63,759 nucleotides of DNA, taken from Ilumatobacteraceae bacterium. GTDB taxonomy: Bacteria; Actinomycetota; Acidimicrobiia; Acidimicrobiales; Ilumatobacteraceae. This document shows positions 27,770 to 44,166 of the stretch, piece by piece. Under the pieces are notes generated by a model. It was given only the letters and a program-made list of their open reading frames with translations. It was not told where the DNA came from and ran no database searches. Location of the stretch: assembly GCA_031412355.1 (NCBI GenBank), contig JANOCR010000063.1:1-63759 (forward strand), written 5' to 3'. Both the position numbers and the translations under genes were made by a program. Within the stretch, counting starts at the first letter, position 1. Each line of letters opens with the position of its first letter.

Positions 27770-28033
27770 ATGCACCGTATCGAGAACCCCACCGAAGTCG
27801 ACACCGTCACGGCCTGGATGGCCGATGGCAACTGTCGCAACTACCCGCCCGCCGTGTTTTTCCCCAGTGATGGCGTTGGTGTCGATCGGGCTCGCAAGAT
27901 CTGCACCGACTGCCCGGTCGCGGCGCAATGCCTCGAATACGCCCTCGAAGAGCGCATCGAACACGGTGTGTGGGGTGGATGCAGCGAGCGCGAGCGTCGT
28001 CGCATCCTCAAGCGCCGTCGGGTTGCCAGCTAG
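27770..28033 (+). CDS. whiB: WhiB-family Fe-S transcriptional regulator
   Basis: Four Cys (C..C-x22-C-x2-C-x5-C pattern: CRNYPP...CTDCPVAAQC), the GVWGG turn and a basic tail. AAGGAG lies 8 nt upstream of the ATG. Confidence 0.85.
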   Translation: MHRIENPTEVDTVTAWMADGNCRNYPPAVFFPSDGVGVDRARKICTDCPVAAQCLEYALEERIEHGVWGGCSERERRRILKRRRVAS

Positions 28034-28848: not shown

Positions 28849-29448
28849 CTAGTCGGTGTCGACCGAGGAGCACAGGTCGTCGCCGAGACGTCCAAGCCAC
28901 GAATCGAGGGCGTTGGTCAAGCGGCGCGTGTCGCCTGTAGCTAACAGGTCCATCACGAGGCCGGTGAACGTGGCCTTGATCAGCGATGCCTGCAGCGCGG
29001 CACGTTCCGGCTTCAAGCCCTCGGCAACCAAACGCCGCTCGACATCGTGACGCCACACGCCGATCTGGTCGGCGCGAACATCGCCGGCCAATCCGGTCAC
29101 GGTGGTCTCGAGCGTTGCCGCTTCATAGTTGAGCCGGACGAGTGCGAGATTCTGCGGCGACGCGCACAACCACCTCCACCACCGCTTGTAGAGCTCGACC
29201 TGCGTCAGTCTCGGCGAGCGCTGCAACCAATTGCGCTGCACCTCGATCTGCTGGTCGATCGCCCGGGCCAGCGCCGCAGTGATGAGTTCGTCCTTCGAAC
29301 CGAAGTGGTGCATCAATCGATTGATGCTGACGCCGAGATCAGCGGCCATCGGACGCAACGTCGTCTGGGCCAGACCCCGTTCAGCGAGGTAGGCGACGAC
29401 CCGATCCAGCAGCTCGCGTTTGAGTTGCGGATCGGGAGTTCGGGCCAC
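28849..29448 (-). CDS. TetR-family transcriptional regulator
   Basis: The N-terminal HTH is TTLRPMAADLGVSINRLMHHFGSKDEL. It lies 6 nt downstream of the PhnD-like gene on the same strand. Confidence 0.85.
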   Translation of the reverse strand: MARTPDPQLKRELLDRVVAYLAERGLAQTTLRPMAADLGVSINRLMHHFGSKDELITAALARAIDQQIEVQRNWLQRSPRLTQVELYKRWWRWLCASPQNLALVRLNYEAATLETTVTGLAGDVRADQIGVWRHDVERRLVAEGLKPERAALQASLIKATFTGLVMDLLATGDTRRLTNALDSWLGRLGDDLCSSVDTD

Positions 29449-29454
29449 GTCGGC

Positions 29455-30192
29455 TCACGTTAGTTGCACGAGTTCGGAAAGTCCCTCGTAGTCCTGCAGA
29501 TCGCGGGCGATGAAGTCGCGGATCTTCAACGTGCGGCGAACGTCGGCCAGCGCGGGGTCGTGCACGGCTTTCGCCAGGGCTCGGCGCAACTCGCCGACAA
29601 GCGAAACCGTCAGGGATCGCGACGACACCAGGGGCAGGCATGGCACACGCGGGCCATGGCCGACCACGGTCAGGCCGAGCCCGTCGATGTGATCCCACGA
29701 CACCGCATCGATCGAGGCCAGGTGCGCACGACCCTGTCGCACCGCTTCGACGCTGCGGGCATGGGCGCCCGTCCACTCGATCGTCTCCAGCCGCACGCCG
29801 TGGGCGCCAGCTGTCGACTGCAGGCTGATCCAACCGGACAGGCTGTCGGGAGAGTTGGCCGCAACCATCAGATCGGCACGATGCAAGATGTCGTCCAACG
29901 AGTCGCCGGTCGCGGTCACCAGCACCGAGCGGTAGGTGCCGTCGACAGCGCCGTCCACATCGAAGTCGAACGTACCGACGACATGAACGGTGGTGGCGAG
30001 TTCGGTGATCAGTGGCCAGCCACAGGTCTGACCGAGCAGTAGATCATCGCGGCGACAAGCGGCGAGGTGGTCGAGATCCCAATCCAGTGCAGGCGTGTCG
30101 AACGGCAGTTGCGTGGACACGTGCTCCCACAGTTGATCGAAGGCGGGACGCAGATTGGTGAACGGATACATCGCCAGCGAGGCGATGGTCAT
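29455..30192 (-). CDS. PhnD/phosphonate-binding-fold (type 2 periplasmic-binding-protein-like) protein without signal peptide
   Basis: MTIASLAMYPF..LRPAFDQLW......LLLGQTCGWP.....VVGT.....YRSVLV matches the signal-less COG3221-like family as I remember it. The ATG overlaps the desaturase stop (ATGA). The remainder of ORF 29455..31086 is an alternate frame of the desaturase. Confidence 0.6.
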   Translation of the reverse strand: MTIASLAMYPFTNLRPAFDQLWEHVSTQLPFDTPALDWDLDHLAACRRDDLLLGQTCGWPLITELATTVHVVGTFDFDVDGAVDGTYRSVLVTATGDSLDDILHRADLMVAANSPDSLSGWISLQSTAGAHGVRLETIEWTGAHARSVEAVRQGRAHLASIDAVSWDHIDGLGLTVVGHGPRVPCLPLVSSRSLTVSLVGELRRALAKAVHDPALADVRRTLKIRDFIARDLQDYEGLSELVQLT

Positions 30193-31121
30193 CGCAGTCC
30201 GCGAGCGCCGAACGGCCGGGCGCCTGGCGAGAGAGGATGGTCGGGCTGGCAGAACGGACGCAGAAAGTTTCGCCTGGCGACTTCGACGTAACCACGGCGG
30301 TACAGGCCGGCCCCCACGGCAGCCAACTCGTCGCCGTCGAGTTGTCGATGCAGTTCGGGAAGGGCGTACCACGGAGTCGACGGCTCGGCGTGATGCGTGT
30401 GATGCAGGTTGTTGTTGAGGTACATCAGCGACATCACCGGGCCGGCTTTCACAACCGCAGACCTGGTTCCTTCGGCAACTGCGCAATGCTCGACGAACGA
30501 GCGCAGGAGGGTGAACGACTGACCCATGACCACGAAGCCAAGCACGTACTCCCAGAGCGGAATAGCGACGACAGCAAACAGCCACCAACTCAATGCGGCA
30601 ACAGCACACAGGTGGGCCGTCCAGCGACGCGCCGCCGCCGGGCTGGAGCTGAGATTGCGGAGCTCGCGCCACAGGTAGCGGCCGATGCTGTGAACTGCGC
30701 CGATGGTCAGTCGCCCGAACATCGTCCGCGTGACGAGTATGTACGTGCGCTTGACCACACCGGCGGACGACCAATCGATGGGTCGAAGGTAGAACGACTC
30801 GGGATCGAACTGGGGGTCGGTGATATCGGTGTGGTGATGCACCATGTGACTCGATCGATAGCCGAGATACGGCAGCCATAGTGACAGCGGAGCAAACGCC
30901 AGCGTGGTGTTGACACCGCGCCATCCTGTCGGGTGACCGTGCAGCGCCTCGTGCTGCAGCGACATGTAGAAGCCACCGAGGAGCGCCAGGACGGCGACTT
31001 CGGCGGGCCACGGCAACGACCGATGCCGCAGGATCACGGCCAGCCACGCGGCATAGAACCCAGCGAACAATCCGAGTGTCAGCCACTCGACCCGACGGCC
31101 CCGTTGTGCCCGCGCCACCAC
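30189..31121 (-). CDS. membrane fatty-acid desaturase family protein (di-iron, three His boxes)
   Basis: The His boxes are HEALHGH, HMVHHH and HHTHH, with hydrophobic segments between them. The start is GTG at 31121. Confidence 0.85.
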   Translation of the reverse strand: MVARAQRGRRVEWLTLGLFAGFYAAWLAVILRHRSLPWPAEVAVLALLGGFYMSLQHEALHGHPTGWRGVNTTLAFAPLSLWLPYLGYRSSHMVHHHTDITDPQFDPESFYLRPIDWSSAGVVKRTYILVTRTMFGRLTIGAVHSIGRYLWRELRNLSSSPAAARRWTAHLCAVAALSWWLFAVVAIPLWEYVLGFVVMGQSFTLLRSFVEHCAVAEGTRSAVVKAGPVMSLMYLNNNLHHTHHAEPSTPWYALPELHRQLDGDELAAVGAGLYRRGYVEVARRNFLRPFCQPDHPLSPGARPFGARGLR

Positions 31122-31216: not shown

Positions 31217-31251
31217 GTTCCACGATACGGGTCGATTCTGCATCGTGGAAC
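31217..31251. promoter_or_regulatory. perfect 10-bp inverted repeat (GTTCCACGAT-N15-ATCGTGGAAC) upstream of the corrinoid operon
   Basis: The arms are at 31217-31226 and 31242-31251. The repeat ends 28 nt before ATG 31280, in the 158-bp divergent intergenic region. It could be an operator or a 5'-UTR hairpin; the function is inferred. Confidence 0.4.
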
Positions 31252-31279: not shown

Positions 31280-32002
31280 ATGAGTGAACAAGATGATCTC
31301 GATCTCGCGACGCTGAGCAACGAGGACCTCGTCGCCCAGATGCACGACGATCTGTACGACGGGCTGGCCGACGAGATCCTCGAGGGCACGACGATCCTGC
31401 TCGACCGCGGTTGGGGACCCGACAAGGTTCTGAACGACGCGCTCGTCGAGGGCATGCGCATCGTCGGGATCGACTTTCGGGACGGCATCTTGTTCGTCCC
31501 CGAGGTGTTGCTGGCCGCCAATGCGATGAAGGCCGGCATGGCCGTGCTTCGCCCGCTGCTGGTCGAGACCGGTGCCGAATCGATCGGCAAGGTCGTGGTC
31601 GGCACCGTGAAAGGCGACATCCACGACATCGGTAAGAACCTGACCGCGATGATGCTCGAAGGCGCCGGTTTCGAGGTGATCGACCTCGGCATCAACACCG
31701 ACGTCGACAAGTTCCTGGCTGCCCTCGAAGAACATCAGCCCGACATCTTGGGCATGTCGGCCCTGCTGACCACCACGATGCCGTACATGAAAGTTGTGGT
31801 CGACACGTTGATCGAGAAGGGTCTGCGCGAGAAGTACCTCGTGCTCGTCGGCGGTGCTCCGCTGAACGAGGAGTTCGGCAATGCCGTCGGTGCCGATGCG
31901 TATTGCCGCGACGCCGCCGTTGCCGCGGAGACTGCCAAGGCCTTGGTCAGCGCACGCCGCAACCGCCTGAAGGCCGAGCCCCCCGGCCCGTCGGTGGCCT
32001 GA
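31280..32002 (+). CDS. methyltransferase cognate corrinoid (B12-binding) protein
   Basis: An N-terminal helical cap is followed by a Rossmann B12 domain. The DxHxxG motif is GDIHDIGKN (D-I-H-D-I-G at 31616-31633), followed by GMSALLTTT and LVGGAPL. Confidence 0.85.
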   Translation: MSEQDDLDLATLSNEDLVAQMHDDLYDGLADEILEGTTILLDRGWGPDKVLNDALVEGMRIVGIDFRDGILFVPEVLLAANAMKAGMAVLRPLLVETGAESIGKVVVGTVKGDIHDIGKNLTAMMLEGAGFEVIDLGINTDVDKFLAALEEHQPDILGMSALLTTTMPYMKVVVDTLIEKGLREKYLVLVGGAPLNEEFGNAVGADAYCRDAAVAAETAKALVSARRNRLKAEPPGPSVA

Positions 32003-32018
32003 AGTTACGGATCTGGGC

Positions 32019-32651
32019 ATGACTGTCGCGCCGCTCGTCGTCGCCTGTGGAGCACTCGCATCGGAGCTTCGCGCAGTGTTGAGGGGTCAGGGTCTTGCCG
32101 ACGCAGTCGAGGTCGTATACCTGCCCGCCAACCTGCACAACCGGCCGGAGCGCATCGTTCCCGAGCTCGAACCACTGCTCGACGCCGCTGCCGCGCAACA
32201 GCGCAGCGTGTTCGTGGCCTACGCCGACTGCGGCACCGGCGGCGCGCTCGACGCCTTGCTCGAGCGTCATCCGGGCGTGACTCGGCTGCCCGGTTCACAC
32301 TGCTACGAGTTCTTCAGCGGCGCCGCGCAGTTCGCGGCGATGCACGAAGAAGAGTTGGGAACGTTTTTCTTGACCGACTTCCTCGCCAAGCACTTCGACG
32401 CGCTGCTGTGGCAAGGCCTCGGCCTCGATCGGCACCCTCAACTGCGCGACCTGTACTTCGCCAACTATCGCCGCGTGGTGCTGATCTCGCAGACCACCAG
32501 CGACGCCGTCATCGCGATGGGTCGTGCCGCAGCGGAACGACTCGGACTGGAGTTCGAGCACCGTCACGTCGGGCTGCAACCGTTCACCGATTCCGTCGTC
32601 GGTCCGGTCACCAGCGCCATCGCCGTCTCCATCACCCGGCGGGTGTCGTGA
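32019..32651 (+). CDS. DUF1638 domain protein
   Basis: VVACGALASEL...YLPANLHNRPE...VAYADCGTGGALD...LPG.HCYEFF is the pattern typical of DUF1638 proteins found in corrinoid methyltransferase clusters. Confidence 0.65.
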   Translation: MTVAPLVVACGALASELRAVLRGQGLADAVEVVYLPANLHNRPERIVPELEPLLDAAAAQQRSVFVAYADCGTGGALDALLERHPGVTRLPGSHCYEFFSGAAQFAAMHEEELGTFFLTDFLAKHFDALLWQGLGLDRHPQLRDLYFANYRRVVLISQTTSDAVIAMGRAAAERLGLEFEHRHVGLQPFTDSVVGPVTSAIAVSITRRVS

Positions 32652-33055
32652 TGGCGCGTACCGGTCGAGGCGGACGCGAGCTGATTGTCATCTACTGGCG
32701 CGACATCCCAGCGCAGGTCAACGCCCAAGCAGGACGCGATCGTCACCAGGTCGTGCTCGGCGGCAAGTTCCAACGGGCGATCGACCGCGCCAAACGCAAG
32801 GCCGGGATCTACACCGCTGACGAGGACGTTGCCCAATGGCGACGCGAGAGTCGGCCGATCGAGGGTGACCTTGCGGCCGAGGCCCAGTCGGTCGCCGACG
32901 CGATCGAGCGCGAGTACCGACGCGAACGGCTCGGGTTGCTGGCCTACTACGGCGGCTGGGAGGCCGACGTGGTGTCGACCGACGCCATCGATCGCGACGT
33001 GCTGGCCGCCCTCGAAGAACTCGACGCAGAAGAAGCCGAACAGGAGAACCAATGA
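32651..33055 (+). CDS. small accessory protein ('virulence factor'-domain-like) of corrinoid methyltransferase clusters
   Basis: 134 aa. LIVIYWRDIPAQVNA...G.FQRAIDRAK resembles the domain I recall from such clusters. The ATG shares one nt with the upstream stop, and the stop overlaps the next start (ATGA). Confidence 0.5.
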   Translation: MARTGRGGRELIVIYWRDIPAQVNAQAGRDRHQVVLGGKFQRAIDRAKRKAGIYTADEDVAQWRRESRPIEGDLAAEAQSVADAIEREYRRERLGLLAYYGGWEADVVSTDAIDRDVLAALEELDAEEAEQENQ

Positions 33056-33945
33056 CCGACACGATTGTCAGCTCAGCCACCCGCGAGGTCGTCATCGGCT
33101 TCGAACGCCCCTTCGTGATGATCGGCGAGAAGATCAACCCCACGGGCCGCAAGCTGCTGGCCGAGGAGATGAAGAACGGCGACTTCAGCCGCGTCGAGGT
33201 CGACGCACTCGCGCAGGTTGCCGCCGGTGCACACATGCTCGACGTCAACGCCGGCATCCCCTTGGCCGACGAGCCGGCCATGTTGGCCAGAGCGGTCACG
33301 CTCGTGCAATCCATCACCGACGTGCCCCTGTCGATCGACTCGTCGATCATCGCCGCCCTGGAGGCCGGGCTGGCCGTGTACCAGGGCAAGCCTCTGGTCA
33401 ACTCCGTCACCGGCGAGGAAGAGGTGCTCGAGCGTGTGATGCCGTTGGTGGCCAAGTACAGCGCGGCCGTCGTCGCGATCTCCAACGACGAGACCGGAAT
33501 CTCGATGGATCCCGACGTGCGGTTTGCTGTCGCCAAGCGCATCGTCGAGCGCGCCGCCGACTTCGGCATTCCAGCGTCGGATGTGATCGTCGATCCGTTG
33601 GTCATGCCGATCGGCGCCCTCGGCCAAGCAGGGCAGCACGCCTTTCAACTGATCCGCCGCCTACGCGACGAACTGAAGGTCAACACGATCTGCGGTGCGT
33701 CGAACGTCAGCTTCGGTCTTCCCAATCGCCATCAGGTCACGGGCACCTTCCTGGCGATGGCGATCGGCGCCGGCATGACGTCGGCGATCATGAATCCGAT
33801 GCACCCCGAGGTCAAGGCGGCTGTGATGGCTGCCGACGTGCTGGCCGGCCAGGACAAGGACTGCGCAGCCTGGATCCGCGCCAACCGTGACCCAACCGCC
33901 GCATCCACCGAGCGCGACGGTCGCCGCCGCCGTAGCCGCGCCTAG
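33052..33945 (+). CDS. methyltetrahydrofolate:corrinoid methyltransferase (pterin-binding TIM barrel, MtrH/AcsE/MetH-like)
   Basis: IGEKINPTGRK, MLDVNAG, SIDSS, LVNSV, NVSFGLPNR and MTSAIMNP are the pterin-binding domain motifs. Confidence 0.8.
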   Translation: MTDTIVSSATREVVIGFERPFVMIGEKINPTGRKLLAEEMKNGDFSRVEVDALAQVAAGAHMLDVNAGIPLADEPAMLARAVTLVQSITDVPLSIDSSIIAALEAGLAVYQGKPLVNSVTGEEEVLERVMPLVAKYSAAVVAISNDETGISMDPDVRFAVAKRIVERAADFGIPASDVIVDPLVMPIGALGQAGQHAFQLIRRLRDELKVNTICGASNVSFGLPNRHQVTGTFLAMAIGAGMTSAIMNPMHPEVKAAVMAADVLAGQDKDCAAWIRANRDPTAASTERDGRRRRSRA

Positions 33946-33950
33946 GCCCC

Positions 33951-35963
33951 ATGCCCCGAATCGTCTTCACACCCTCCGGCCTGACCGGCGAGGTCGACAC
34001 CGGTACCACGGTGTTGAGCGCGGCGCGCCAGCTCGGCGTTGATCTCGATTCGGTGTGTGGCGGTCGCGGCATCTGCGGGCGGTGCCAGATCGAGCCGACG
34101 ACGGGATCATTCGCCAAGTGGGCGATCACCAGTGAAGCGACCGCCCTCTCGGATTGGTCGTCGGTCGAGGTGGACTACGAGACAAAGGGCAACGCCCGAC
34201 GCCCCCTTCGCGAAGGCCGGCGCCTGGGTTGCGCAGCGACGGTTCTCGCCAACGCGGTTGTTGCTGTTCCGTCGGAGAGCCAGGTCCACAAGCAGGTCGT
34301 GCGCAAGACCGTCGATCTCACCGGCCTGGTGATCGATCCCCAGTTCACCCTCGTCAACGTCGATGTGCCAAAGGCGGTGCTCGGGGATTCCGAGTCCGTC
34401 ACAGAACTGATCGGCGAAGCCGTCGTGCGTACCCACAGTGTCGAGGTGCGAAACTGGAGCACCACCGTGCTGCGCGCCGCTCACAAGGCCGCCGCGAACG
34501 ACCACGGTTCTGTCACCATCGCCATCGACCGCGACGGGTTGGCCGTTGCCATCTGGCCCGGGTTCGTCGACACCGTTCTCGGCGTCGCGATCGACGTCGG
34601 TTCGACGACCGTCGCCGGCCATCTGTGTGACCTGTCGACCGGCGAGGTGTTGGCCACTGCGGGCATCATGAATCCGCAGATCCGCTTCGGCGAGGACCTG
34701 ATGAGCCGAGTGTCGTACGTGATGATGAATCCCGGCGGCGACAAGGAGCTGACGGCGTGCATTCGCGCAGCACTGAACGACCTGATCGCCGATCTCCTTC
34801 GACAGGCAGACTCGCCTGCCGACGAATTGCTCGACATCGTGATCGTCGGCAACCCGATCATGCATCACATCGTGTTGGGCATCGACCCAACACCGTTGGG
34901 CCAGGCCCCGTTTACCCTCGCCAGCGCCATGGCAATCCGCACGGCGGCGACCGACATCGGTCTCGGGTTCCCAACGGCACGTGCCTTCGTGGGCCCGTGC
35001 ATCGCCGGCCACGTCGGCGCCGACACGACGGCTGCGATGCTGGCCGAGGGCCCGCACCGCGGTGAGCAGTGGCAACTACTGGTCGACGTCGGCACCAACG
35101 CGGAGATCGTGCTCGGCTGTGCCTCGCGTCAGTTCGCTGCTTCGAGCCCGACCGGCCCAGCCTTCGAGGGCGCCCAGATCTCGTGCGGCCAGCGCGCTAC
35201 TGCAGGAGCCATTGAGCGCGTGCGCATCGACCGGGCGACACTTGCCCCGCGATTCAAGGTCATCGGATGCGATCTGTGGAGCGACGACCCCGGCTTCGCT
35301 GCGGCCACCGAGGATCTGACGATCAGCGGCGTGTGCGGTTCGGGAATCATCGAAGTTGTGGGCGAGATGTTCCTTGCGGGCGTGATCGACACCGAAGGGG
35401 TCGTGCGCGGCGAGGCCGCCGCCACCTGCGAGCACATCGTGGCCGACGACCGCACATTTCGGTATGTGCTGCATCGCACCGAGACGATCGAACTGTCGAT
35501 CACGCAGAACGATGTGCGCGCGATTCAACTGGCCAAGGCCGCGTTGCGCGCCGGAATCGATCTCCTGATGGGGCACGCGGGTGTCGACTCGCTCGACGAC
35601 ATGCGCCTGGCCGGCGCGTTCGGTGCGCACATCGATCCGCTCTACGCCCTCGTGCTCGGCTTGGTGCCCGATGCGCCGGTCGGCGCTGTTCGTTCCGTCG
35701 GCAACGCCGCCGGTGCCGGTGCGGTGAGGGCGCTGCTGTCGATGCAAGCGCGAGCCGAAATGGAAGCGGCAGCGCGCGCCGTGGTGAAGATCGAGACGGC
35801 CACAGAACCGCAGTTCCAAGAGTTGTTCGTGGCGGCGATGGCGTTCCCGCACGCCACCGCGCCCTCGCCGCACCTCGGCGCGATCGTCACGCTTCCCGAA
35901 CGAATCTCATCTGTCGATGCCGCAGGGGGCCGTCGACGCCGCAGACAGGAGAACAGGTCATGA
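33951..35963 (+). CDS. corrinoid reductive activation protein (N-terminal 2Fe-2S ferredoxin + ASKHA ATPase, RACo/RamA-like)
   Basis: The N-terminus is plant-type ferredoxin-like, with the Cys cluster SVCGGRGICGRCQIE. The C-terminus has ASKHA motifs (GVAIDVGSTTV, LLVDVGTNAEIV, VGNAAGAGA). Confidence 0.8.
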   Translation: MPRIVFTPSGLTGEVDTGTTVLSAARQLGVDLDSVCGGRGICGRCQIEPTTGSFAKWAITSEATALSDWSSVEVDYETKGNARRPLREGRRLGCAATVLANAVVAVPSESQVHKQVVRKTVDLTGLVIDPQFTLVNVDVPKAVLGDSESVTELIGEAVVRTHSVEVRNWSTTVLRAAHKAAANDHGSVTIAIDRDGLAVAIWPGFVDTVLGVAIDVGSTTVAGHLCDLSTGEVLATAGIMNPQIRFGEDLMSRVSYVMMNPGGDKELTACIRAALNDLIADLLRQADSPADELLDIVIVGNPIMHHIVLGIDPTPLGQAPFTLASAMAIRTAATDIGLGFPTARAFVGPCIAGHVGADTTAAMLAEGPHRGEQWQLLVDVGTNAEIVLGCASRQFAASSPTGPAFEGAQISCGQRATAGAIERVRIDRATLAPRFKVIGCDLWSDDPGFAAATEDLTISGVCGSGIIEVVGEMFLAGVIDTEGVVRGEAAATCEHIVADDRTFRYVLHRTETIELSITQNDVRAIQLAKAALRAGIDLLMGHAGVDSLDDMRLAGAFGAHIDPLYALVLGLVPDAPVGAVRSVGNAAGAGAVRALLSMQARAEMEAAARAVVKIETATEPQFQELFVAAMAFPHATAPSPHLGAIVTLPERISSVDAAGGRRRRRQENRS

Positions 35964-37528
35964 CATCCACCGAAGCTGGCTCGGATCACAGTGCCGAAGC
36001 CGGAACAGGCCGGCGCAGCGGGGGACGCGCCGGACGGCAGGCGTTACGCGCCTCGCACGTCGTCGAGGCCGACACGTACCTGACGCGCACCATGAAGCCG
36101 TTCGAGATCGTCAGTGACGAGGGTCTCGAGATCATCGAACGCAACGCCGAAACGATCCTCGAAGAAGTAGGCGTCGAGATCCGCGACTACCCGTCGGCGC
36201 TGAAGGTGTTCGCCGACGCCGGCGCGTCGGTCGACGGCACGCGCGTGCACTTTCCGCGCGGCATGTGCCGCCAGATCGTGCAAGCCACGGCGCCACGCGA
36301 GTACATCCAGCACGCTCGCAACCCGCTGAAGAACGTGCGCATCGGTGGCGATGCCACAGTGTTTGCTCCCAACTACGGCTCGCCGTTCGCCTACGACATC
36401 GACAACGGGCGGCGCTACGCGACGATCGAAGACTTCCGCAACTTCGTGAAGCTCACGTACCAGTCGCTGTACCTGCACCACAGTGGCGGCACGGTGTGTG
36501 AGCCCGTCGACATCCCGGTCAGCAAACGCCATCTCGACATGGTGTTCACCCATCTGCGTTACAGCGACAAGCCCTTCATGGGCTCTGTCACGGCGGCCAC
36601 CAGGGCGCAGGACTCGGTCGACATGGCGGCCATCGCCTTCGGAGGCGACCTCGCCGACCGCACCGTGATCACCAGCCTGATCAACGCGTCATCCCCCTTG
36701 GTGTGGGACGGCACGATGCTCGGTTCGGCCGAGGTTTACGCCCGCAACAACCAGGCGTGCATCATCACGCCGTTCATCCTGGCCGGAGCGATGGCGCCCA
36801 CCACCTCTGCGGGCGTGGCAGCGCAGACCTTGGCCGAGTCGCTGGCGGGCATGACGTTCACACAGTTGATCCGCCCCGGCGCTCCGGTGATCTTCGGGTC
36901 ATTCGCGTCCTCGATGTCGATGCAGACAGGTGCGCCGACGTTCGGCACGCCAGAGCCGGCGATCGTGCTGTACACGATCGCCGCACTGGCTAGGCGCCTG
37001 GGTGTGCCGTTCCGCAGCGGCGGGTCGCTGACCGCGTCCAAGATCCCCGACGCCCAAGCCGCGTACGAGAGCGCGGCAACGCTGCTGCCCACCGTGCTCG
37101 GCGGCACGAACTTCGTGCTGCACGCCGCCGGCTGGCAAGAGGGTGGCCTGTCGATCGGCTACGAGAAGTTCATCATGGACGAGGACCAGTGCGGGATGAT
37201 GGCTACGTTCGTCAAGGGGCTCGACCTCTCCGAGAACGGCCAGGCGATCGATGCCATTCGCGACAACGGGCCCGGGCAGCACTTCCTAGGCACGGCGCAC
37301 ACCTTCGCCAACTTCGAGACCGCGTTCTATCGAAGCAACGTCGCCGACAATTCCAGCTTCGAGCAGTGGGCCGAGGACGGAGCAACCGATGCGCCAACCC
37401 GCGCCAACGCGGTGTGGAAGAAGCGCCTCGCCGAGTACGAGATGCCGCCGATGGACGATGCAATCGTCGAGGAGTTGAACGAGTTCGTAGATCGCCGCAA
37501 ACAGGAGTTGCCCGATGAGTTCGCATGA
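35960..37528 (+). CDS. MttB-superfamily (trimethylamine methyltransferase family) methyltransferase, non-pyrrolysine type; substrate unknown
   Basis: 522 aa. It has an Arg/Gly-rich N-terminus followed by EGLEIIERNAETILEEVG and PFILAGAMAPTT, GAPTFGTPE, AGWQEGGL blocks. There is no in-frame TAG. The ATG overlaps the upstream stop (ATGA). Confidence 0.85.
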   Translation: MTSTEAGSDHSAEAGTGRRSGGRAGRQALRASHVVEADTYLTRTMKPFEIVSDEGLEIIERNAETILEEVGVEIRDYPSALKVFADAGASVDGTRVHFPRGMCRQIVQATAPREYIQHARNPLKNVRIGGDATVFAPNYGSPFAYDIDNGRRYATIEDFRNFVKLTYQSLYLHHSGGTVCEPVDIPVSKRHLDMVFTHLRYSDKPFMGSVTAATRAQDSVDMAAIAFGGDLADRTVITSLINASSPLVWDGTMLGSAEVYARNNQACIITPFILAGAMAPTTSAGVAAQTLAESLAGMTFTQLIRPGAPVIFGSFASSMSMQTGAPTFGTPEPAIVLYTIAALARRLGVPFRSGGSLTASKIPDAQAAYESAATLLPTVLGGTNFVLHAAGWQEGGLSIGYEKFIMDEDQCGMMATFVKGLDLSENGQAIDAIRDNGPGQHFLGTAHTFANFETAFYRSNVADNSSFEQWAEDGATDAPTRANAVWKKRLAEYEMPPMDDAIVEELNEFVDRRKQELPDEFA

Positions 37529-38348
37529 TGCCCGCCGTCGCCTGATCGAGAACGCTCGCTACGAGCTGGTCCCGCTCAAGTCGCTGCACGACCACATCCC
37601 GCATCTGCCAACGGGCTGTTCGGTCTCGGTCACGTGTTCGCCGACGAAAGGAATCGAGCCGACCCTCGAGCTCAGCGCCGAGCTCAACGGCGCCGGCCAC
37701 CACGCTGTGCCGCACATCGCCGCGCGCCTGGTCGAGGGCCGCGAACATGTCGAGAAGATCGCAGCTCGCCTCAACGAGCACGAAATCACCGAGATCTTCG
37801 TCGTCGGTGGCGACCCCGAGCCTGTCGGCCCCTACAGCGACGGCCTCTCACTGATCCGTGACTTGCTGCCGTTGTGTCAGACCGTTCGCACCCTCGGCGT
37901 GCCCGCATATCCCGATCACCACTCGGTCATTCCCGACGCGGCACTCGACGAGGCGCTGCTCGCCAAGCAGACACTGATCGCCGACCTCGGGTTGCAGGGC
38001 TTCGCCAGCACCCAGATGTGCTTCAACGCCAAGACGATCGAGCAGTGGCTGGTGCGACAACGAGAACGCGGCATGACGCTGCCGATCCATCTCGGCGTGC
38101 CCGGATCCGTGGATCGCACCCGACTGTTGAGCCTCGGTACTCGCCTCGGCATCGGCTCGTCGCTGAGGTATCTGCGGAAGAACTCGGGGGCCATCCTGCG
38201 CATGTTCTCGCCGGCCAGCTACGACCCCAACAAACTGATCACCCCGATCTCGCGCCGAGCGGACGAACTGAACATCACCGCACTGCACCTATTCACGTTC
38301 AACTCCATCGAGTCGACTGCGGAATGGCAACGCAAGTCGCTCTCCTGA
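37515..38348 (+). CDS. methylenetetrahydrofolate reductase-like protein
   Basis: ELVPLKS...VSVTCSP.KG...T...A..L...G....PHI.AR......H....A.L......EIFVVGGDP is MTHFR-fold-like. It overlaps the MttB gene by 14 nt. Confidence 0.7.
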   Translation: MSSHDARRRLIENARYELVPLKSLHDHIPHLPTGCSVSVTCSPTKGIEPTLELSAELNGAGHHAVPHIAARLVEGREHVEKIAARLNEHEITEIFVVGGDPEPVGPYSDGLSLIRDLLPLCQTVRTLGVPAYPDHHSVIPDAALDEALLAKQTLIADLGLQGFASTQMCFNAKTIEQWLVRQRERGMTLPIHLGVPGSVDRTRLLSLGTRLGIGSSLRYLRKNSGAILRMFSPASYDPNKLITPISRRADELNITALHLFTFNSIESTAEWQRKSLS

Positions 38349-38442: not shown

Positions 38443-40317
38443 ATGCACGTTGCTCGTGAGTTGATAGTCATCGTCACGGTCGTTGCCGCAATTGCCGGTG
38501 TGGCTCGCAAGTTCGGACGCACGGCGCCGCTGGTGTTGGTTGTCGCCGGAATCGCCGTGTCGTATCTGCCGGGTATCGACGACGTGACGGTCGAGCCCGA
38601 CCTGATCCTCGTCGGCATCCTGCCACCGCTGCTGTACGCAGCAGCGATCCGCACGTCGCTGGTCGACTTCCGCTCGAACGCTCGCCCAATCGGGCTGCTG
38701 TCCGTCGGGTATGTCGCGTTCACCACTGTGACCATCGGTTTCATCACATGGTGGTTGCTGCCGGTTCCGCTCGCGGCAGCGTTCGCGCTCGGCGCTGTCG
38801 TCGCCCCGCCCGACGCCGTCGCAGCAACCTCGATCGCCCGAAAGGTCGGGATGCCTCGCCGTGTGGTGACGATCCTCGAGGGCGAGAGCCTGGTCAACGA
38901 TGCGACGGCGATCGTCTGCTTGAGAACCGCTATCGCGGCGATGGCAGGGAGTGTCACGGCGTCGGAGATCGCGTTCGACTTCGCGCTCGCGGCGATCGGG
39001 GGCGTTGGTATCGGCTTCCTCGCCGCCTTCGTGATCGGTCACATCCGCACGCGCGTCGACGACACCGTGCTCGACACAACGATCTCACTCGTGTCTCCGT
39101 TTGTGGCATATCTCGCTGCGGAGGAGGTCCACGCGTCGGGAGTGCTCGCCGTAGTGGTGATGGGTCTACTGCTCGGGCACAAGGCGTATGTCATCCAGTC
39201 AGCTCCGTCACGGATGCTGGAACGCGGCAACTGGGCGACGGTGCAGTTCATCCTCGAGCACTCCGTCTTCTTCCTCATCGGGCTGCAAGCTCAGCGGATC
39301 ATCGACGACGTCGCCGATAGCACGCTCTCGGGCGCTCGAATCGCCGGGACGGCAGCTGCGGTGCTCGCTGCGGTCATGGTGCTCCGGTTCGTTTGGGTGT
39401 TCCCGGCGACATATCTGCCCCGCTGGTTGTCGCCGCGGCTCGCCGCGCGCGATCCCTCGCCACCATGGCAGGTTCCCACGGTCCTCAGTTGGGCAGGCAT
39501 GCGCGGCGTGGTCACGCTTGCCGCCGTGTTCCTCCTGCCCGACGACACGCCGAACCGCGAGACGCTGGTGTTGGTCGCCTTGGTCGTCGCAGCCGGGACA
39601 CTCCTGATCCAGGGACCAACGTTGCCCGTGCTCGTGCGCAAGCTGAACCTCGACGGGCCCAACGCCGCCCAAGACCTCCTCACCGAGGCCCTGCTCTACC
39701 AGAAGGCGGCGCGCGCCGGCCTCGCTGCGCTCGACAATGCCACCACCGGTGACGAAACGCCCAACGTGCTCGAACGACTACGCCAGAGCGGCCTCGAACG
39801 AGCCGATGCTGCCTGGGAAATACTCGGTCGCGACGGCGAGACCCCGAGCCAGACATACGCCCGGCTACGGGCGGTCATGCTCGACTCCGAGCGCGCCGCG
39901 GTGCTCGAAACCCGCGACGACGGAACCGCACCCGACGACGTGTTGAGCAAGGTGTTGGGCTCGCTCGACATCGAGGAAAGCGTGCTGCTCAATTTGCTCG
40001 GCGCCCAGCAAGTCGAACGCACGGGCGACCTCACGGCGGCCGAACTCGACACGCCCGGATGCCCGGACCTTCGCGAAGCCGCACACAACGACGTCCCCGA
40101 ACCGCGAACTCCAAGTGGTTGCGAGGAATGCATGCGCGACGGCACGCGGTGGGTGCACCTGCGCCTGTGCCTCAGCTGTGGACACGTCGGATGTTGCGAC
40201 TCATCGGAACACCGACACGCAGATCGTCACTTCCGCGACACCGCGCACCCCGTGATGCGCAGCTTCGAGCCCGACGAACTGTGGCGCTGGTGCTACATCC
40301 ATGAACAGGCGGGTTGA
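38443..40317 (+). CDS. Na+/H+ antiporter (CPA1/NhaP type) fused to a C-terminal UBP-type zinc finger
   Basis: It has about 12 TM segments with an ATDAV-like PPDAVAA motif and a cytoplasmic helical region. The C-terminus GCEECMRDGTRWVHLRLCLSCGHVGCCDSSEHRHADRHFRDTAHPV...WRWCY is a zf-UBP Cys/His pattern. Confidence 0.8.
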   Translation: MHVARELIVIVTVVAAIAGVARKFGRTAPLVLVVAGIAVSYLPGIDDVTVEPDLILVGILPPLLYAAAIRTSLVDFRSNARPIGLLSVGYVAFTTVTIGFITWWLLPVPLAAAFALGAVVAPPDAVAATSIARKVGMPRRVVTILEGESLVNDATAIVCLRTAIAAMAGSVTASEIAFDFALAAIGGVGIGFLAAFVIGHIRTRVDDTVLDTTISLVSPFVAYLAAEEVHASGVLAVVVMGLLLGHKAYVIQSAPSRMLERGNWATVQFILEHSVFFLIGLQAQRIIDDVADSTLSGARIAGTAAAVLAAVMVLRFVWVFPATYLPRWLSPRLAARDPSPPWQVPTVLSWAGMRGVVTLAAVFLLPDDTPNRETLVLVALVVAAGTLLIQGPTLPVLVRKLNLDGPNAAQDLLTEALLYQKAARAGLAALDNATTGDETPNVLERLRQSGLERADAAWEILGRDGETPSQTYARLRAVMLDSERAAVLETRDDGTAPDDVLSKVLGSLDIEESVLLNLLGAQQVERTGDLTAAELDTPGCPDLREAAHNDVPEPRTPSGCEECMRDGTRWVHLRLCLSCGHVGCCDSSEHRHADRHFRDTAHPVMRSFEPDELWRWCYIHEQAG

Positions 40318-40426
40318 GCAGGCCGTTCCGGGGTAGTAGTACCAATGGCCAATTGATTCACCGGACCAATAGTCGTGAACTGGGTCGAAGCGCGGCGATG
40401 TGCACCGAGCTCCCAAAGGGTCCGCC

Positions 40427-43400
40427 ATGAAGCGAAGCAACCGGTTCTTCAGGAAAGCAGCCGCGTCGATGCTCGTCATCATCGTCGCGCTGCCCGCAGT
40501 CGATGGATTCGAGGGGGTCGCGGTCGCCGCGCCGCCCCCGGCACCCGCACTCGTGGGGCCAGCCAACGGCGCCAGTGTGACGATCCCATTCGCGATCTCG
40601 TGGGCGCAGGTGACCGGTGCCGGAGGGTACAACTGGGAGATCAGCCTGACGTCGGACTTCACGTCAGTCCTCGAACGAAACCTGTCGCTGCTCGTCGGCG
40701 GGGCAACGACTCAAGACGTCATCAGCGGCCTGCCGAACGGCACGTATTTCTGGCGTATCCAGGGCGTCAGCCCCAACCTCGAGCCGGGGGCCTGGTCGTC
40801 GCCGCGCAGTTTCACCGTCACGGGGGCAGGTCCCGGCGTCCCGGGCGTCGCCGTTCTCAACCCTCCGCTCAACGCCACCCAGTTCCACTCGTGGGAGAAC
40901 ATCACCTTCACCTGGAGCGCCGTGCCCGGCGCCGTCAGCTACATCCTCCAGGAATCGATCGACCCCACCTTCCCCGTCGACACGAGGGTGCGGCAGGTCA
41001 ACATTCCGGGGCCAACCGAGGTCATCTCGTTCAACCCCAGCATCCAAGGCAACTTCAAGGCACGTGTCATCGCCGTCGGCCCCAGCGGCCTGATGGGAAC
41101 CCCGTCCAACGTTGTCGACTTCAGCGTGCTCGACAGCAACCCGTTCCCGGCCGCGCCGACGCTGACTGCCCCGAGCAACGGTGCATCACAACAGTTGCCC
41201 GTGACCCTCTCGTGGACGCACGTGCCAAACCACCAAGAGCTCGGCTACCAGCTCCAGATCGCGACGAACTCCTCGTTCACCTCGATCGAGGCGTCAATCG
41301 GGGTCTCGGAGAATTCGAAAATCGTGTCGGCACTCACGCCGGGTGCGAAGTTCTGGCGAGTGCGCTCGCAGCACGGCTACATCGGCAGCGACCCTGCGTA
41401 CACCGCCTTCTCGGCGACCGGAACGTTCACGGTGCTGGCTACTTCGCTCCGGATGGGTGCCGTCATCTTCCCGTCGACCAAGTTCAGCGGTGGAGAAGCC
41501 CGCGGCGCGGTGGAGCTCACCGGCAACGCGCCGGCGGGAGGCGCCACGGTCACGCTGACGACCGACCGACCGGATCTGCTTCCCGAGCTGCCGAGTTCGC
41601 GAGTGGTGCCCGAGGGCACCTCGTCGATCGGCGTGCTCATCGCGCCGACTGGGTTCCCGAACTCGCTCCGCGGGATGCGTGTAGGTTTCGTCACCACGCC
41701 GACAACGGTGACAGTGACAGCGACCTACAACGGAACGTCCGTATCCACCACGATCACGATCGTGCCTCCGAAGCTGAACGACACCCCGCTCCAGTTGTTC
41801 CCGGTCAAGGCGACCGGCGGAGCGGACATGTTGGGGATCGTCGACCTGGAGATCGGCTGCTTCGCCGGGTTCTGCGACGGTCTGGCTCCCCCGGGAGGCT
41901 TCGTGGTGAACCTGTCCAGTTCGTCCCCTGCCGCGGTAGTGCCGGCGACTATGACCATTCCCGCCGGTGCGGGTGGCGACCAGTTCCCGATCCAGACAAA
42001 CCCGGTCTCGACCGACACCACCGTAACCATCACCGCAGCCGCCGGCGGTGCCACCGCCAACTGGTACATCACACTCACACCGTCGCCCGCGCCTGACTCG
42101 CTCACGCTGGATCCGATCGAAACCGACAACGGCTCGCGAGGGATCGCCAGGATTCCTCTGTCCTCGATGCGCGGGCACGATCAGCTGTTGCGGTTGACCA
42201 GCAGCAACCCGGCGGTCGCCGCGGTGCCAGAATTCGCCACCGTGCCGGCCTCGACGGAGGCCGCAATCTTCTTCATCACCACGAGCACCGTGACCACTCG
42301 AACCGTGGTCACGATCTCGGTGACGGGCGGCGGCGTCACTCGCTCGGTTGACCTCGTCGTTCATCCCAGCCTGCCGGCGCTGACCGGTTTTTCCGTCAGC
42401 CCCAGCAGCGTGCCGGGCGGAACATCGGCCACCGGTACCGTCACACTGGCTAGCGCGGCGCCGGCTGGCGGGGTGTCTGTCAGCTTGAGCAGCAACCTGC
42501 CGGGCTCCGCAAGCGTTCCGCCGACCGTCACCGTACCGGCGGGCGCAACGAGCGCGTCGTTCACGGTGACCACGTTCCCGGTCGACAACACGACCGTCCA
42601 ACTCGTCGCAACCCTCGGCAGCACGACTCTCTTCGCCGCGCTCGGCATCACACAGGCTTCGTCCACAACCCTTTCGTCGCTGACGCTCAGCCCGAGCACC
42701 GTCGTGGGAGGCTCGTCGTCGACCGGCACCGTCACTCTCAGCGCCGCCGCGCCGTCGGGTGGCGCAGTCGTGGCACTATCCGACAACTCCGCTTCGGCCA
42801 CCGTGCCCGCCAGCGTCACCATCAGCGCCGGGGCCACGAGCCGAACCTTCACGGTGACGACTTCGACGGTCTCGATCACGACCGCGGTAAGTGTCTCGGG
42901 CTCGTACGGCGGCGCCACGAGAAGCGCCACCTTGACGATCAACCCGCTTGCCGCGCCCACGCTGCAGAGCCCCTCCAACGGGGCAACAGGCGTGGCCCAG
43001 CCGGTGGCGTTCAACTGGACCGATGTCGCCAACGCGGTGGACTACGAGATCCAGATCGACAACACCTCCACCATCTCCGCACCATTCGTCGCCAACCAGA
43101 CCGTCAACGTGTCGCAAGCCTCGATCGGCGGCCTTCCGGCTCAGCAACTGTGGTGGCGGGTACGGGCCCGCAACGCCGCCGGCGTGTTCGGCCCGTTCTC
43201 GTCGACCAGGCGGTTCACGCCCGTCGCCACGACGACCACGCCAAGCCTGTCGACGGTTGCTGTCTCACCCACCAGCGTCGTGGGCGGTGCAAGCGCCACG
43301 GGCACCGTCACGCTGACTGCTGCCGCACCAACTGGCGGTGCGGTCGTCGCCCTGACCAGTTCCAACACCGTGGCGGCCGTCCCGGCCAGCGTCACCGTGG

Positions 43401-44104
43401 CTGCAGGCGCGACCAGCGCGACGTTCACGGCGACGACGACAGCGGTGGCGGCCTCGACGGCCGTGACGTTGACGGCGGCCTACAGCGGCGTCAGTCGCAC
43501 TGCCACGCTCACCGTCAACCCGCCGGCCAGTCTGACCGCGTTGGGTCTCGCGCCGTCGAGCCTGGTCGGGGGTGCTTCGTCGACGGGCACCGTCACGTTG
43601 TCGAGCGCCGCCCCGACCGGCGGCCTGGTCGTGACCCTGACCAGCTCCAACGCCGCAGCTGTCGTGCCGGCCAGCGTCACCGTTCCGGCAGCTGCGACGA
43701 CTGCGACCTTCACGACCACCACGAGCACCGTGACCGCGCAGACCGCGGTGACCATCACGGCGGCTGCCAGCGGCGTGAGCCGAACTGCCACACTCACGGT
43801 CAACCCGGCCTCCACCGGGACCCTGGTGGCCCCATCGCTCATCAGCCCATCCGATGATGCCCGCTTCAACGCGGGTCAGACAATAACCTTCGACTGGTCC
43901 GACGTCGCCGGCGCGGCGACGTACATCATCCAGATCGACGACCAGGACACCTTCCCATCGCCGATCGTCAGCCAGAGCGTCACGACCTCGACGTACTCCA
44001 CCAACACGCTCCCGACGACTCGAATGTGGTGGCGCGTACGAGCCGTCGACGCATCCGGCAACCCTGGGGCGTGGTCATCGAGCCGCAGGTTCGAACTGCG
44101 GTAG
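40427..44104 (+). CDS. large secreted repeat protein (5 FN3-like 'A' modules + 7 Ig-like 'B' modules)
   Basis: The signal peptide is MKRSNRFFRKAAASMLVIIVALPAV. The A modules (about 90 aa) follow P.L.SP.NGA...F.W..V.GA..Y.IQI...F......WWRVRA. The B modules (about 95 aa) follow L.LSPS.V.GG.S.TGTVTL..AAP.GG..V.L.S.......PASVTV.AGAT...F.V.T. No LPXTG tail or C-terminal TM segment is present. Confidence 0.8.
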   Translation: MKRSNRFFRKAAASMLVIIVALPAVDGFEGVAVAAPPPAPALVGPANGASVTIPFAISWAQVTGAGGYNWEISLTSDFTSVLERNLSLLVGGATTQDVISGLPNGTYFWRIQGVSPNLEPGAWSSPRSFTVTGAGPGVPGVAVLNPPLNATQFHSWENITFTWSAVPGAVSYILQESIDPTFPVDTRVRQVNIPGPTEVISFNPSIQGNFKARVIAVGPSGLMGTPSNVVDFSVLDSNPFPAAPTLTAPSNGASQQLPVTLSWTHVPNHQELGYQLQIATNSSFTSIEASIGVSENSKIVSALTPGAKFWRVRSQHGYIGSDPAYTAFSATGTFTVLATSLRMGAVIFPSTKFSGGEARGAVELTGNAPAGGATVTLTTDRPDLLPELPSSRVVPEGTSSIGVLIAPTGFPNSLRGMRVGFVTTPTTVTVTATYNGTSVSTTITIVPPKLNDTPLQLFPVKATGGADMLGIVDLEIGCFAGFCDGLAPPGGFVVNLSSSSPAAVVPATMTIPAGAGGDQFPIQTNPVSTDTTVTITAAAGGATANWYITLTPSPAPDSLTLDPIETDNGSRGIARIPLSSMRGHDQLLRLTSSNPAVAAVPEFATVPASTEAAIFFITTSTVTTRTVVTISVTGGGVTRSVDLVVHPSLPALTGFSVSPSSVPGGTSATGTVTLASAAPAGGVSVSLSSNLPGSASVPPTVTVPAGATSASFTVTTFPVDNTTVQLVATLGSTTLFAALGITQASSTTLSSLTLSPSTVVGGSSSTGTVTLSAAAPSGGAVVALSDNSASATVPASVTISAGATSRTFTVTTSTVSITTAVSVSGSYGGATRSATLTINPLAAPTLQSPSNGATGVAQPVAFNWTDVANAVDYEIQIDNTSTISAPFVANQTVNVSQASIGGLPAQQLWWRVRARNAAGVFGPFSSTRRFTPVATTTTPSLSTVAVSPTSVVGGASATGTVTLTAAAPTGGAVVALTSSNTVAAVPASVTVAAGATSATFTATTTAVAASTAVTLTAAYSGVSRTATLTVNPPASLTALGLAPSSLVGGASSTGTVTLSSAAPTGGLVVTLTSSNAAAVVPASVTVPAAATTATFTTTTSTVTAQTAVTITAAASGVSRTATLTVNPASTGTLVAPSLISPSDDARFNAGQTITFDWSDVAGAATYIIQIDDQDTFPSPIVSQSVTTSTYSTNTLPTTRMWWRVRAVDASGNPGAWSSSRRFELR

Positions 44105-44166
44105 CCCCATCGACCTCGTCTGATGCGCCGTGCAAGCCGCGTCGGGAGATATTCCTGGTTACGGTG

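Follow-up and report, generated by a model that had tools for sequence, protein, structure and literature searches.

The window, i.e. the whole 63,759-nt stretch of contig JANOCR010000063.1 analysed here, stems from an Ilumatobacteraceae bacterium (Acidimicrobiia, Actinomycetota) and carries seven consecutive plus-strand genes at positions 31280-38348 (Table 1). Each of these genes begins with ATG and is free of internal stops, and GGAG-type ribosome-binding sites precede mtgC, mtgD, mttB1 and metF2. The genes are joined, in order, by a 16-nt gap, a 1-nt overlap (TGATG), an ATGA overlap, a 5-nt gap, a second ATGA overlap and a 14-nt overlap, which reproduces exactly the seven same-strand genes and six junctions described in an earlier, sequence-only reading of this DNA. 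Such an arrangement is far beyond chance. With a probability of roughly 80%, the operon encodes an MtgBCD-type cobalamin-dependent methyltransferase system of an O2-respiring bacterium, for which glycine betaine would be the most probable methyl donor. This view is based on domain content, key motifs, orthology to a gene cluster of Sinorhizobium meliloti, strict synteny and a catabolic gene neighbourhood.

The closest proteins come from metagenome genomes of Ilumatobacteraceae and other Acidimicrobiia. Scanning one genome per species returned 290 stretches encoding a relative of MttB1, 80 of which were kept; apart from one mislabelled 'Bifidobacterium' bin, the titles of the kept loci name Ilumatobacteraceae, further Acidimicrobiia or Actinomycetota without classification. 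Across these 80 species representatives, every sufficiently flanked locus shows the order mtgC, DUF1638, PF13769, mtgD, activase, mttB and metF2, with protein identities ranging from 43-53% (metF2 between clades, the lowest) to 75-97% (mttB1). Because both order and identities are kept across relatives, the operon is real, under selection and a clade-wide trait.

Table 1. Features of the window discussed in the text, in order of position.
Feature	Position	Strand	Basis or remark
HemY-type protoporphyrinogen oxidase	205-1542
GSDH-type pyrroloquinoline quinone (PQQ) dehydrogenase	13328-14527
WhiB	27770-28033
TetR-family regulator, candidate repressor at the inverted repeat	28849-29448	-	TetR_N
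PhnD-like (PF12974) protein of substrate-binding-protein fold, 245 aa	29455-30192	-	Pfam, 50 bits
FA_desaturase-family membrane di-iron protein, 310 aa, divergent from mtgC	30189-31121	-	PF00487, 105 bits
Perfect 10-bp inverted repeat GTTCCACGAT-N15-ATCGTGGAAC	31217-31251	.	29 nt before mtgC start
mtgC-like corrinoid protein (B12-binding cap and B12-binding domain)	31280-32002	+	PF02607, PF02310, DIHDIG
DUF1638 protein, predicted cofactor-reactivation accessory	32019-32651	+	PF07796
Small PF13769 ('Virulence_fact') protein, 134 aa	32651-33055	+	Pfam
mtgD-like methyl-tetrahydrofolate:corrinoid methyltransferase, pterin-binding TIM barrel	33052-33945	+	Pterin_bind, NF005719
RACo/AcsV-type reductive activase, 2Fe-2S-like Cys motif and ASKHA ATPase	33951-35963	+	RACo_middle, RACo_C_ter
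mttB1, non-pyrrolysine MttB-superfamily substrate:corrinoid methyltransferase	35960-37528	+	MTTB, PDB matches
metF2-like methylenetetrahydrofolate reductase (MTHFR) homologue, 277 aa	37515-38348	+	PDB match 7XG9
mttB2, second non-pyrrolysine MttB paralog	46237-47688 (alternative start 46147)	+	MTTB, 635 bits
Dimethylglycine/sarcosine-dehydrogenase-family flavoenzyme (DAO, FAO_M, GCV_T, GCV_T_C)	47712-50156	+	Pfam; 23 nt after mttB2

The individual proteins agree closely with the parts list that the sequence-only reading had drawn up. The corrinoid protein MtgC has both B12 domains by Pfam (B12-binding_2, 59 bits; B12-binding, 97 bits) and contains the His-on motif DxHxxG as DIHDIG at nucleotides 31616-31633, just where it had been placed before; in the NCBIfam MtgC models of the anaerobe type, it stays below the cut-off (207 vs 370 bits). 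MtgD, which had been taken for a pterin-binding methyl-tetrahydrofolate (methyl-THF):corrinoid methyltransferase, matches Pterin_bind (94 bits) and exceeds the cut-off of NCBIfam NF005719 (358 vs 259 bits). The proposed 2Fe-2S plus ASKHA activator displays the RACo/AcsV layout of an N-terminal 2Fe-2S-like Cys region, a linker, a middle domain and a C-terminal ASKHA ATPase domain, with Pfam recovering RACo_middle (153 bits), RACo_C_ter (269 bits) and, weakly, the linker. Its 2Fe-2S assignment rests on Cys36, Cys42, Cys45 and Cys94 together with weak ferredoxin-model matches, Pfam Fer2 giving no match. Judging by its scores against the AcsV model (318 bits, cut-off 800, aligned over residues 4-636) and the RamA model (110 bits, below the cut-off), the activase is a relative of AcsV, not an equivalog.

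Both proposed accessory genes were likewise matched, to PF07796 (DUF1638, 86 bits) and to PF13769 (59 bits). The small PF13769 protein has 1457 homologues, and the 120 matches listed are all stand-alone proteins of 131-156 aa; a homologue is present in the equivalent S. meliloti clusters and directly follows DUF1638 in the cluster of Azoarcus KH32C. Structure prediction contributed little: a single-sequence AlphaFold model of the DUF1638 protein reached a predicted local distance difference test (pLDDT) score of 60, and Foldseek found nothing below E 0.001 for it in the PDB (best template modelling score 0.37), the AF2 model of the PF13769 protein, built on a 30-sequence but shallow alignment, was unusable (pLDDT 46.7), and searching PDB sequences with DUF1638 and with the PF13769 profile returned chance matches only. 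The sequence-only reading had left the roles of these two proteins and the substrate unassigned; DUF1638 is now genetically implicated, since it is needed, together with the RamA-like protein, in aerobically grown Phaeobacter inhibens (PMC5764234). Because both genes are translationally coupled to that of the corrinoid protein, the case for DUF1638 and PF13769 as true components becomes stronger.

As for the substrate-specific enzyme, the open reading frame (ORF) at 35960 had been expected to belong to the MTTB family, and it matches PF06253 at 730 bits. Comparison with MttB structures (4YYC, 2QNE/9YCE and 7XCL) places MttB1 closest to 4YYC (E 3e-205), followed by Desulfitobacterium hafniense MtgB (2QNE, 9YCE; E 1e-120) and, far behind, the pyrrolysine-containing MttB of Methanosarcina barkeri (E 1.5e-31). 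The paralog MttB2 is 41% identical to MttB1, and about half of its listed homologues are 483 aa long. At the position aligned to the pyrrolysine of M. barkeri MttB, MttB1 has Leu357 (CTG) and MttB2 has Val347 (GTG), bearing out the earlier statement that mttB1 lacks an in-frame amber codon, and the model of the pyrrolysine type, TIGR02369, gives 261 and 318 bits for the two paralogs vs a cut-off of 525. Two related genomes (L044, 13988-15433; L079, 13832-15268) encode yet another MttB paralog ~1.5 kb downstream of metF2, the third, which shares 51-52% identity with MttB1, so that in Acidimicrobiia one corrinoid core comes with several substrate modules.

Orthology across phyla links these genes to a system with an assigned function. 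The S. meliloti cluster comprises bmt (MtgE), a trimethylamine methyltransferase family protein, a cobalamin-binding protein, DUF1638, a 'virulence factor', a MetV-like protein, an MTHFR, a methyl-THF cobalamin methyltransferase and an ASKHA protein, and it has been assigned to MtgBCDE (PMC12478193). Identity to its products amounts to 76% for MtgC, 66% for MtgD, 62% for MttB1, 50% for DUF1638, 49% for the activase and 41% for the PF13769 protein, values that suggest an old horizontal transfer. Over the 71 residues that were compared, the MttB of the cluster matches 4YYC as printed.

The last gene of the operon is less obvious. With 18.7 bits, the MetF2-like protein stays below the Pfam MTHFR cut-off of 24, and at E 1e-4 it shows no homology to the MetV-like or MetF protein of the S. 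meliloti cluster. Its best PDB match, Sphingobium S6MTHFR (7XG9, E 4e-25, residues 9-271, i.e. 263 residues), nevertheless rescues the assignment and confirms the MTHFR-like enzyme of the sequence-only reading. S6MTHFR is a 'type 4' MTHFR that oxidises methyl-THF without use of NADH (PMC11868366). On account of this similarity and of the FolD and formate-THF ligase (FTHFS) genes next to the operon in relatives, the MetF2-like protein is predicted to oxidise methyl-THF to methylene-THF.

The neighbourhood of the operon in relatives points to choline and glycine betaine catabolism and one-carbon (C1) oxidation and supports the functional reading. In a freshwater type represented by L020 and about 20 other loci, FTHFS, FolD and BetA (choline dehydrogenase; 832 bits vs an equivalog cut-off of 732) are encoded upstream of the operon, and a DAO-family oxidase and an MtgE-type homocysteine methyltransferase (NCBIfam, 503 bits vs a cut-off of 338) downstream; altogether, BetA directly precedes the MttB1-type operon in 22 loci. 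In a second type (L055), the operon is flanked by three genes of the dimethylglycine/sarcosine-dehydrogenase family and by those for the alpha and beta subunits of electron transfer flavoprotein (ETF). The mttB2-dehydrogenase pair of the window is itself kept in all nine close relatives whose sequence reaches past mttB2, in L084 (85% identical) and in seven metagenome loci. The O2-linked or aerobe-typical genes cited earlier for an aerobic context of this DNA are also present, i.e. those for the HemY-type oxidase, FA_desaturase-family protein, PQQ dehydrogenase and WhiB, and an FAD-linked oxidase is encoded in the window as well.

Taken together, domains, cross-phylum orthology and context support the pathway put forward in the sequence-only reading, namely methyl transfer from a quaternary amine to THF with ATP-dependent reactivation of Co(II) and oxidation of methyl-THF. 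MttB1, with MttB2 as a second substrate module, would bind a carboxylate-bearing quaternary amine, one N-methyl group of which would be taken over by MtgC in its Co(I) form. MtgD would then use methyl-Co(III)-MtgC to methylate THF, and the MetF2-like enzyme would convert methyl-THF to methylene-THF, which could enter folate-linked C1 oxidation or assimilation. Corrinoid that has slipped into the Co(II) form would be re-reduced by the 2Fe-2S/ASKHA activase at the cost of ATP, a step in which DUF1638 would assist and the PF13769 protein might do so. If dimethylglycine is the product, flavoenzymes of the dimethylglycine/sarcosine-dehydrogenase family, e.g. the one encoded after mttB2, would take it further. 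In this scheme, the identity of the substrate, the direction of MetF2 and the roles of the accessory proteins are what we infer.

Several observations weigh against this interpretation. In D. hafniense MtgB, glycine betaine is contacted by Y97, R312, H348 and F356, and the exchanges F356L and Y97A raise the Km several-hundred-fold (PMC13080624). Three of these four contacts are kept in MttB1 (Y139, R352 and H388, with F356 replaced by Gly396) and two in MttB2 (R343 and H378, with Ala127 for Y97 and Gly386 for F356). The motifs that characterise type 4 MTHFRs, located in loop beta2-alpha3 (L48-P49), helix alpha8 (F215, C219) and loop beta8-alpha11 (P268-F269) (PMC11868366), are only partly kept in the MetF2-like protein: P49 and F269 are present, and L48 is replaced by Ser, F215 and C219 by Leu, and P268 by Thr. 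Furthermore, the window encodes neither a betaine transporter nor MtgE or FolD and contains no cobalamin gene, and an Rfam scan of it matched no family at all, cobalamin riboswitch included. With regard to the contacts, the states at the four positions are near-invariant among 120 homologues of each paralog, with the exception of Ala/Gly at position 127 of MttB2. A Trp four residues before the Gly (W392 in MttB1, W382 in MttB2) is invariant in the homologues and might supply the aromatic contact in place of F356. The AGW-EGG motif is present in S. meliloti 4YYC, too. It is very likely that the substrate is a carboxylate-bearing quaternary amine; for MttB1, glycine betaine is our best guess, which would make it a probable glycine betaine methyltransferase of the MtgB type of aerobes.

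These incomplete contact sets are one argument for a less likely alternative, in which MttB1, MttB2 or both act on another quaternary amine, be it proline or hydroxyproline betaine, carnitine, gamma-butyrobetaine, a choline derivative or a new compound. MttB-superfamily members with other specificities exist (PMC12478193, PMC13080624), MttB2 has diverged widely from MttB1, and the flanks of mttB2 in relatives encode an MR_MLE protein of the enolase superfamily and an Opp-type ATP-binding cassette (ABC) transporter. Glycine betaine, on the other hand, is favoured by BetA directly upstream of the MttB1-type operon, by dimethylglycine/sarcosine-dehydrogenase-family genes flanking it in other loci, by the orthology of MttB1 to the S. 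meliloti MttB that the literature assigns to glycine betaine and by the invariance of the carboxylate-binding Arg and His; nor do the MR_MLE proteins carry a specific NCBIfam name.

The MR_MLE gene often lies divergently upstream of the mttB2-dehydrogenase pair (L084, 7660-8823, and L011, 4108-5232, both on the minus strand; likewise L007, L001, L005, L008, L012 and L018); L084 additionally contains the Opp-type transporter and, downstream, FTHFS. Epimerases for proline betaine and hydroxyproline betaine belong to the enolase superfamily. MttB2 may therefore act on a betaine of this sort, a lead that NCBIfam does not confirm, having returned no specific family for the MR_MLE neighbours of mttB2.

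We regard it as rather unlikely that MtgC, MtgD, the activase and DUF1638 primarily form a split cobalamin methionine synthase that works with an MtgE encoded elsewhere, betaine demethylation being secondary or absent. What speaks for this view is the MtgE-type gene of 28 related freshwater loci, which lies on the same strand ~1.3 kb after metF2 and whose product is 62-66% identical to S. meliloti Bmt. Yet, MtgE is encoded neither in the window nor within 10 kb in the loci of its closest relatives, an MttB gene is always part of the operon, the MTHFR homologue resembles the oxidising rather than the biosynthetic type, and catabolic genes flank the operon (those for BetA, dimethylglycine dehydrogenases, ETF, FolD and FTHFS). 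The two roles are compatible and not mutually exclusive, the published model being one of dual function (PMC12478193), and MtgC and MtgD possibly serve a second role in methionine synthesis, together with an MtgE encoded elsewhere.

It is improbable that the organism is not truly aerobic or uses the operon under anoxia only, which would turn the system into the classical anaerobic pathway. Corrinoid chemistry needs no O2, Co(I) is oxygen-sensitive and the source is a metagenome-type contig without attached physiology; against this stand the O2-dependent or respiratory-chain-linked enzymes encoded in the window and beside the operons of relatives (HemY-type oxidase, desaturase-family protein, ETF-linked dehydrogenases, choline dehydrogenase), the lack of any Wood-Ljungdahl or methanogenesis genes among those seen and the fact that the homologous system works in aerobically grown Roseobacters. 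Finally, although most automatic annotations, including those of the source ('trimethylamine--corrinoid protein Co-methyltransferase'), say so and Rfam PYLIS_3 is matched in four related loci, the MttB genes can hardly encode genuine trimethylamine methyltransferases, as they lack an in-frame amber codon, have Leu or Val at the pyrrolysine position, score far under the TIGR02369 cut-off, resemble M. barkeri MttB much more weakly than the MtgB type, and the PYLIS matches barely pass and are explained by coding-sequence homology.

Those PYLIS_3 matches lie inside non-pyrrolysine mttB orthologues (positions 11018-11117 in L020, L024 and L028; 11057-11156 in L055) and reach 40-44 bits vs a gathering threshold of 38. 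The orthologues concerned have no amber codon and mttB1 of the window stays below the threshold, so that the matches are most simply an artefact of coding-sequence homology. In the seven related loci scanned, Rfam returned nothing but tRNAs and these marginal matches.

Upstream of the operon, a perfect inverted repeat precedes mtgC. It is embedded in a 36-nt block that is invariant except for one base in 11 loci of the clade to which the window belongs (clade A), whereas the flanking intergenic DNA is variable and contains indels; as RNA, the repeat folds with -30.7 kcal/mol (z -3.05). The repeat is confined to the clade in which the divergent TetR gene is found as well. It is a candidate operator, possibly for TetR, or alternatively a 5′ stem-loop, and TetR would be a candidate repressor at this site. 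A candidate assignment of the regulator as a BetI equivalog was rejected, given 30.6 bits vs a cut-off of 201 and weak similarity confined to the helix-turn-helix region.

Between TetR and the repeat lie the genes for the desaturase-like and PhnD-like proteins. In the former, three His boxes are visible and identity in close relatives is 79-87%; the latter has no obvious signal-peptide-like segment at its N-terminus by eye and adjoins the desaturase-like gene in 25 of the 36 metagenome loci of at least 6 kb. A 543-aa ORF covering both (29455-31086, minus strand), with a PhnD-like match in its C-terminal part, was rejected as a single gene because codon scoring, Pfam and conservation all indicate two genes in different frames, with the Arg/Ala-rich N-terminal half of the ORF being an out-of-frame read-through of the desaturase-family gene. 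Spurious read-through ORFs of this sort are typical of high-GC DNA.

The pair recurs as a two-gene module divergent to corrinoid or MttB genes (L084, 5931-7591; L086-L104; L120; L130; L132). It stands next to the mtgC operon in the clade of the window, next to mttB2 and the dehydrogenase gene in all 11 metagenome loci that have enough flank and a desaturase at least 52% identical, and, at ~40% identity, next to mtgC-DUF1638-PF13769 and the activase in L120 and L130. The desaturase-like protein is possibly linked to the pathway. One could go further and regard the conserved block of mttB2, dehydrogenase and desaturase/PhnD-like genes as a hitherto undescribed aerobic route by which another methylated amine is used, which we consider unlikely; an O2-dependent di-iron enzyme and a B12 methyltransferase would then act on one substrate family or, alternatively, represent the options for cobalt-limited and cobalt-replete conditions, respectively.

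The remaining features of the window concern the surroundings of mttB2 and more distant genes. The 7.8 kb between metF2 and mttB2 (38443-45725) encode a Na+/H+ exchanger whose C-terminus is a zf-UBP zinc finger, a 1234-aa protein with Ig-like repeats, and an extracytoplasmic function (ECF) sigma factor with a downstream gene. This interval has no counterpart in any related locus, and in L017 mttB2 follows metF2 directly, after 147 nt; it would seem to be a lineage-specific insertion within what was once a super-operon. The dehydrogenase gene is followed by that of a 616-aa protein (50303-52153, plus strand) that matches neither Pfam nor NCBIfam and is 70-80% conserved at this place in close relatives. 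An aldehyde dehydrogenase of the window was considered as a betaine aldehyde dehydrogenase and rejected, being a piperideine-6-carboxylate dehydrogenase equivalog. Lastly, ARAGORN called a 91-nt tRNA-Arg(CCG) at 61135-61225 (minus strand), inside an FGGY-family kinase ORF (60620-62059, plus strand); it is probably a false positive, Rfam finding no tRNA in the window.

The finding opens no new kind of biochemistry, but it extends aerobic B12-dependent betaine demethylation from marine Proteobacteria to the Acidimicrobiia. Many of the 290 stretches in the species-level collection derive from soil, glacier-stream and freshwater metagenome genomes, and if their operons are active, these Actinomycetota consume choline and glycine betaine with a requirement for cobalamin. 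Annotation pipelines would hide this requirement, since they give the key gene the label 'trimethylamine methyltransferase' and sort it into methanogenesis. For biochemists, the seven-gene operon constitutes a convenient cassette for reconstitution.

The sequence-only reading had drawn its novelty from the premise that characterised non-pyrrolysine MttB systems come solely from strict anaerobes. This premise is outdated, since the same system was shown in aerobic bacteria between 2018 and 2025. Fitness genetics in aerobically grown P. inhibens revealed a three-part B12 methionine synthase for which B12-binding, pterin-binding, RamA-like ferredoxin/DUF4445 and DUF1638 proteins are all needed (Price 2018, PMC5764234). 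In aerobic Ruegeria pomeroyi, mtgC and mtgD are indispensable not only to the synthesis of methionine but also to glycine betaine catabolism, and two MttB-family proteins, RamA, DUF1638 and MetF2 are upregulated on N-osmolytes (Mausz 2025 (PNAS), PMC12478193). The same study reports frequent colocation of such genes in other bacteria and assigns 5% of marine mtgC reads to Actinomycetota, its supplements containing no Actinobacteria entry. Most recently, a P. inhibens mtgB1 gbcAB double mutant was described to have lost growth on glycine betaine (2025 preprint, 10.64898/2025.12.19.695462). A literature search found no paper analysing the operon in Acidimicrobiia.

Among known systems, the window most resembles the MtgBCD(E) systems of Ruegeria, Phaeobacter and S. 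meliloti, with which it shares the parts list including PF13769, the aerobic setting and nearby genes of glycine betaine catabolism; on an Azoarcus plasmid, the same core lies beside a glycine betaine ABC transporter, ETF, an FAD oxidoreductase and PurU. Differences concern habitat, as the Acidimicrobiia loci come from soil, freshwater and glacier-stream metagenome genomes and MtgBCD from marine Proteobacteria, and gene organisation, as the seven genes form one translationally coupled operon here and are scattered in Ruegeria and Phaeobacter. Moreover, the MTHFR, 277 aa long, is related to the type 4 enzyme of Sphingobium and takes the place of the MetV-like and MetF pair of S. meliloti and Azoarcus, and MtgE, present in the S. 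meliloti cluster as bmt, is not encoded within the window.

With D. hafniense, and with the MtgB of Methanolobus vulcani, the window has in common the three-component logic, the MttB fold and the Arg and His that hold the carboxylate. In contrast, the D. hafniense type belongs to strict anaerobes and serves energy conservation, and it retains the F356 that is Gly in both paralogs of the window and the Y97 that is Ala in MttB2. The THF methyltransferases differ as well: D. hafniense MtgA is described as being without sequence identity to known structures (PMC7154762), whereas that of the window is a MetH-like pterin-binding protein. Eubacterium limosum, compared here by design, uses MtpB, MtcB, MtyB and MthB for proline betaine, carnitine, gamma-butyrobetaine and choline derivatives, with several MttB paralogs feeding one corrinoid protein and one THF methyltransferase. 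By analogy, MttB1 and MttB2, along with the third paralog of L044 and L079, suggest a similar multi-paralog design, although in E. limosum, as an anaerobic acetogen, it is acetogenesis that receives the methyl-THF.

Aerobic demethylation to methyl-THF followed by an oxidative MTHFR is further known from CmuA/CmuB/MetF2 of Methylorubrum extorquens CM4 and from LigM/DesA with S6MTHFR of Sphingobium lignivorans SYK-6 (PMC11868366), where donors and first enzymes differ from those of the window: chloromethane with CmuA in CM4, and aryl methyl ethers with the corrinoid-independent LigM in SYK-6. The system described here is of a kind already known from aerobes; what is new is its phylum, its compact operon and its different MTHFR partner.

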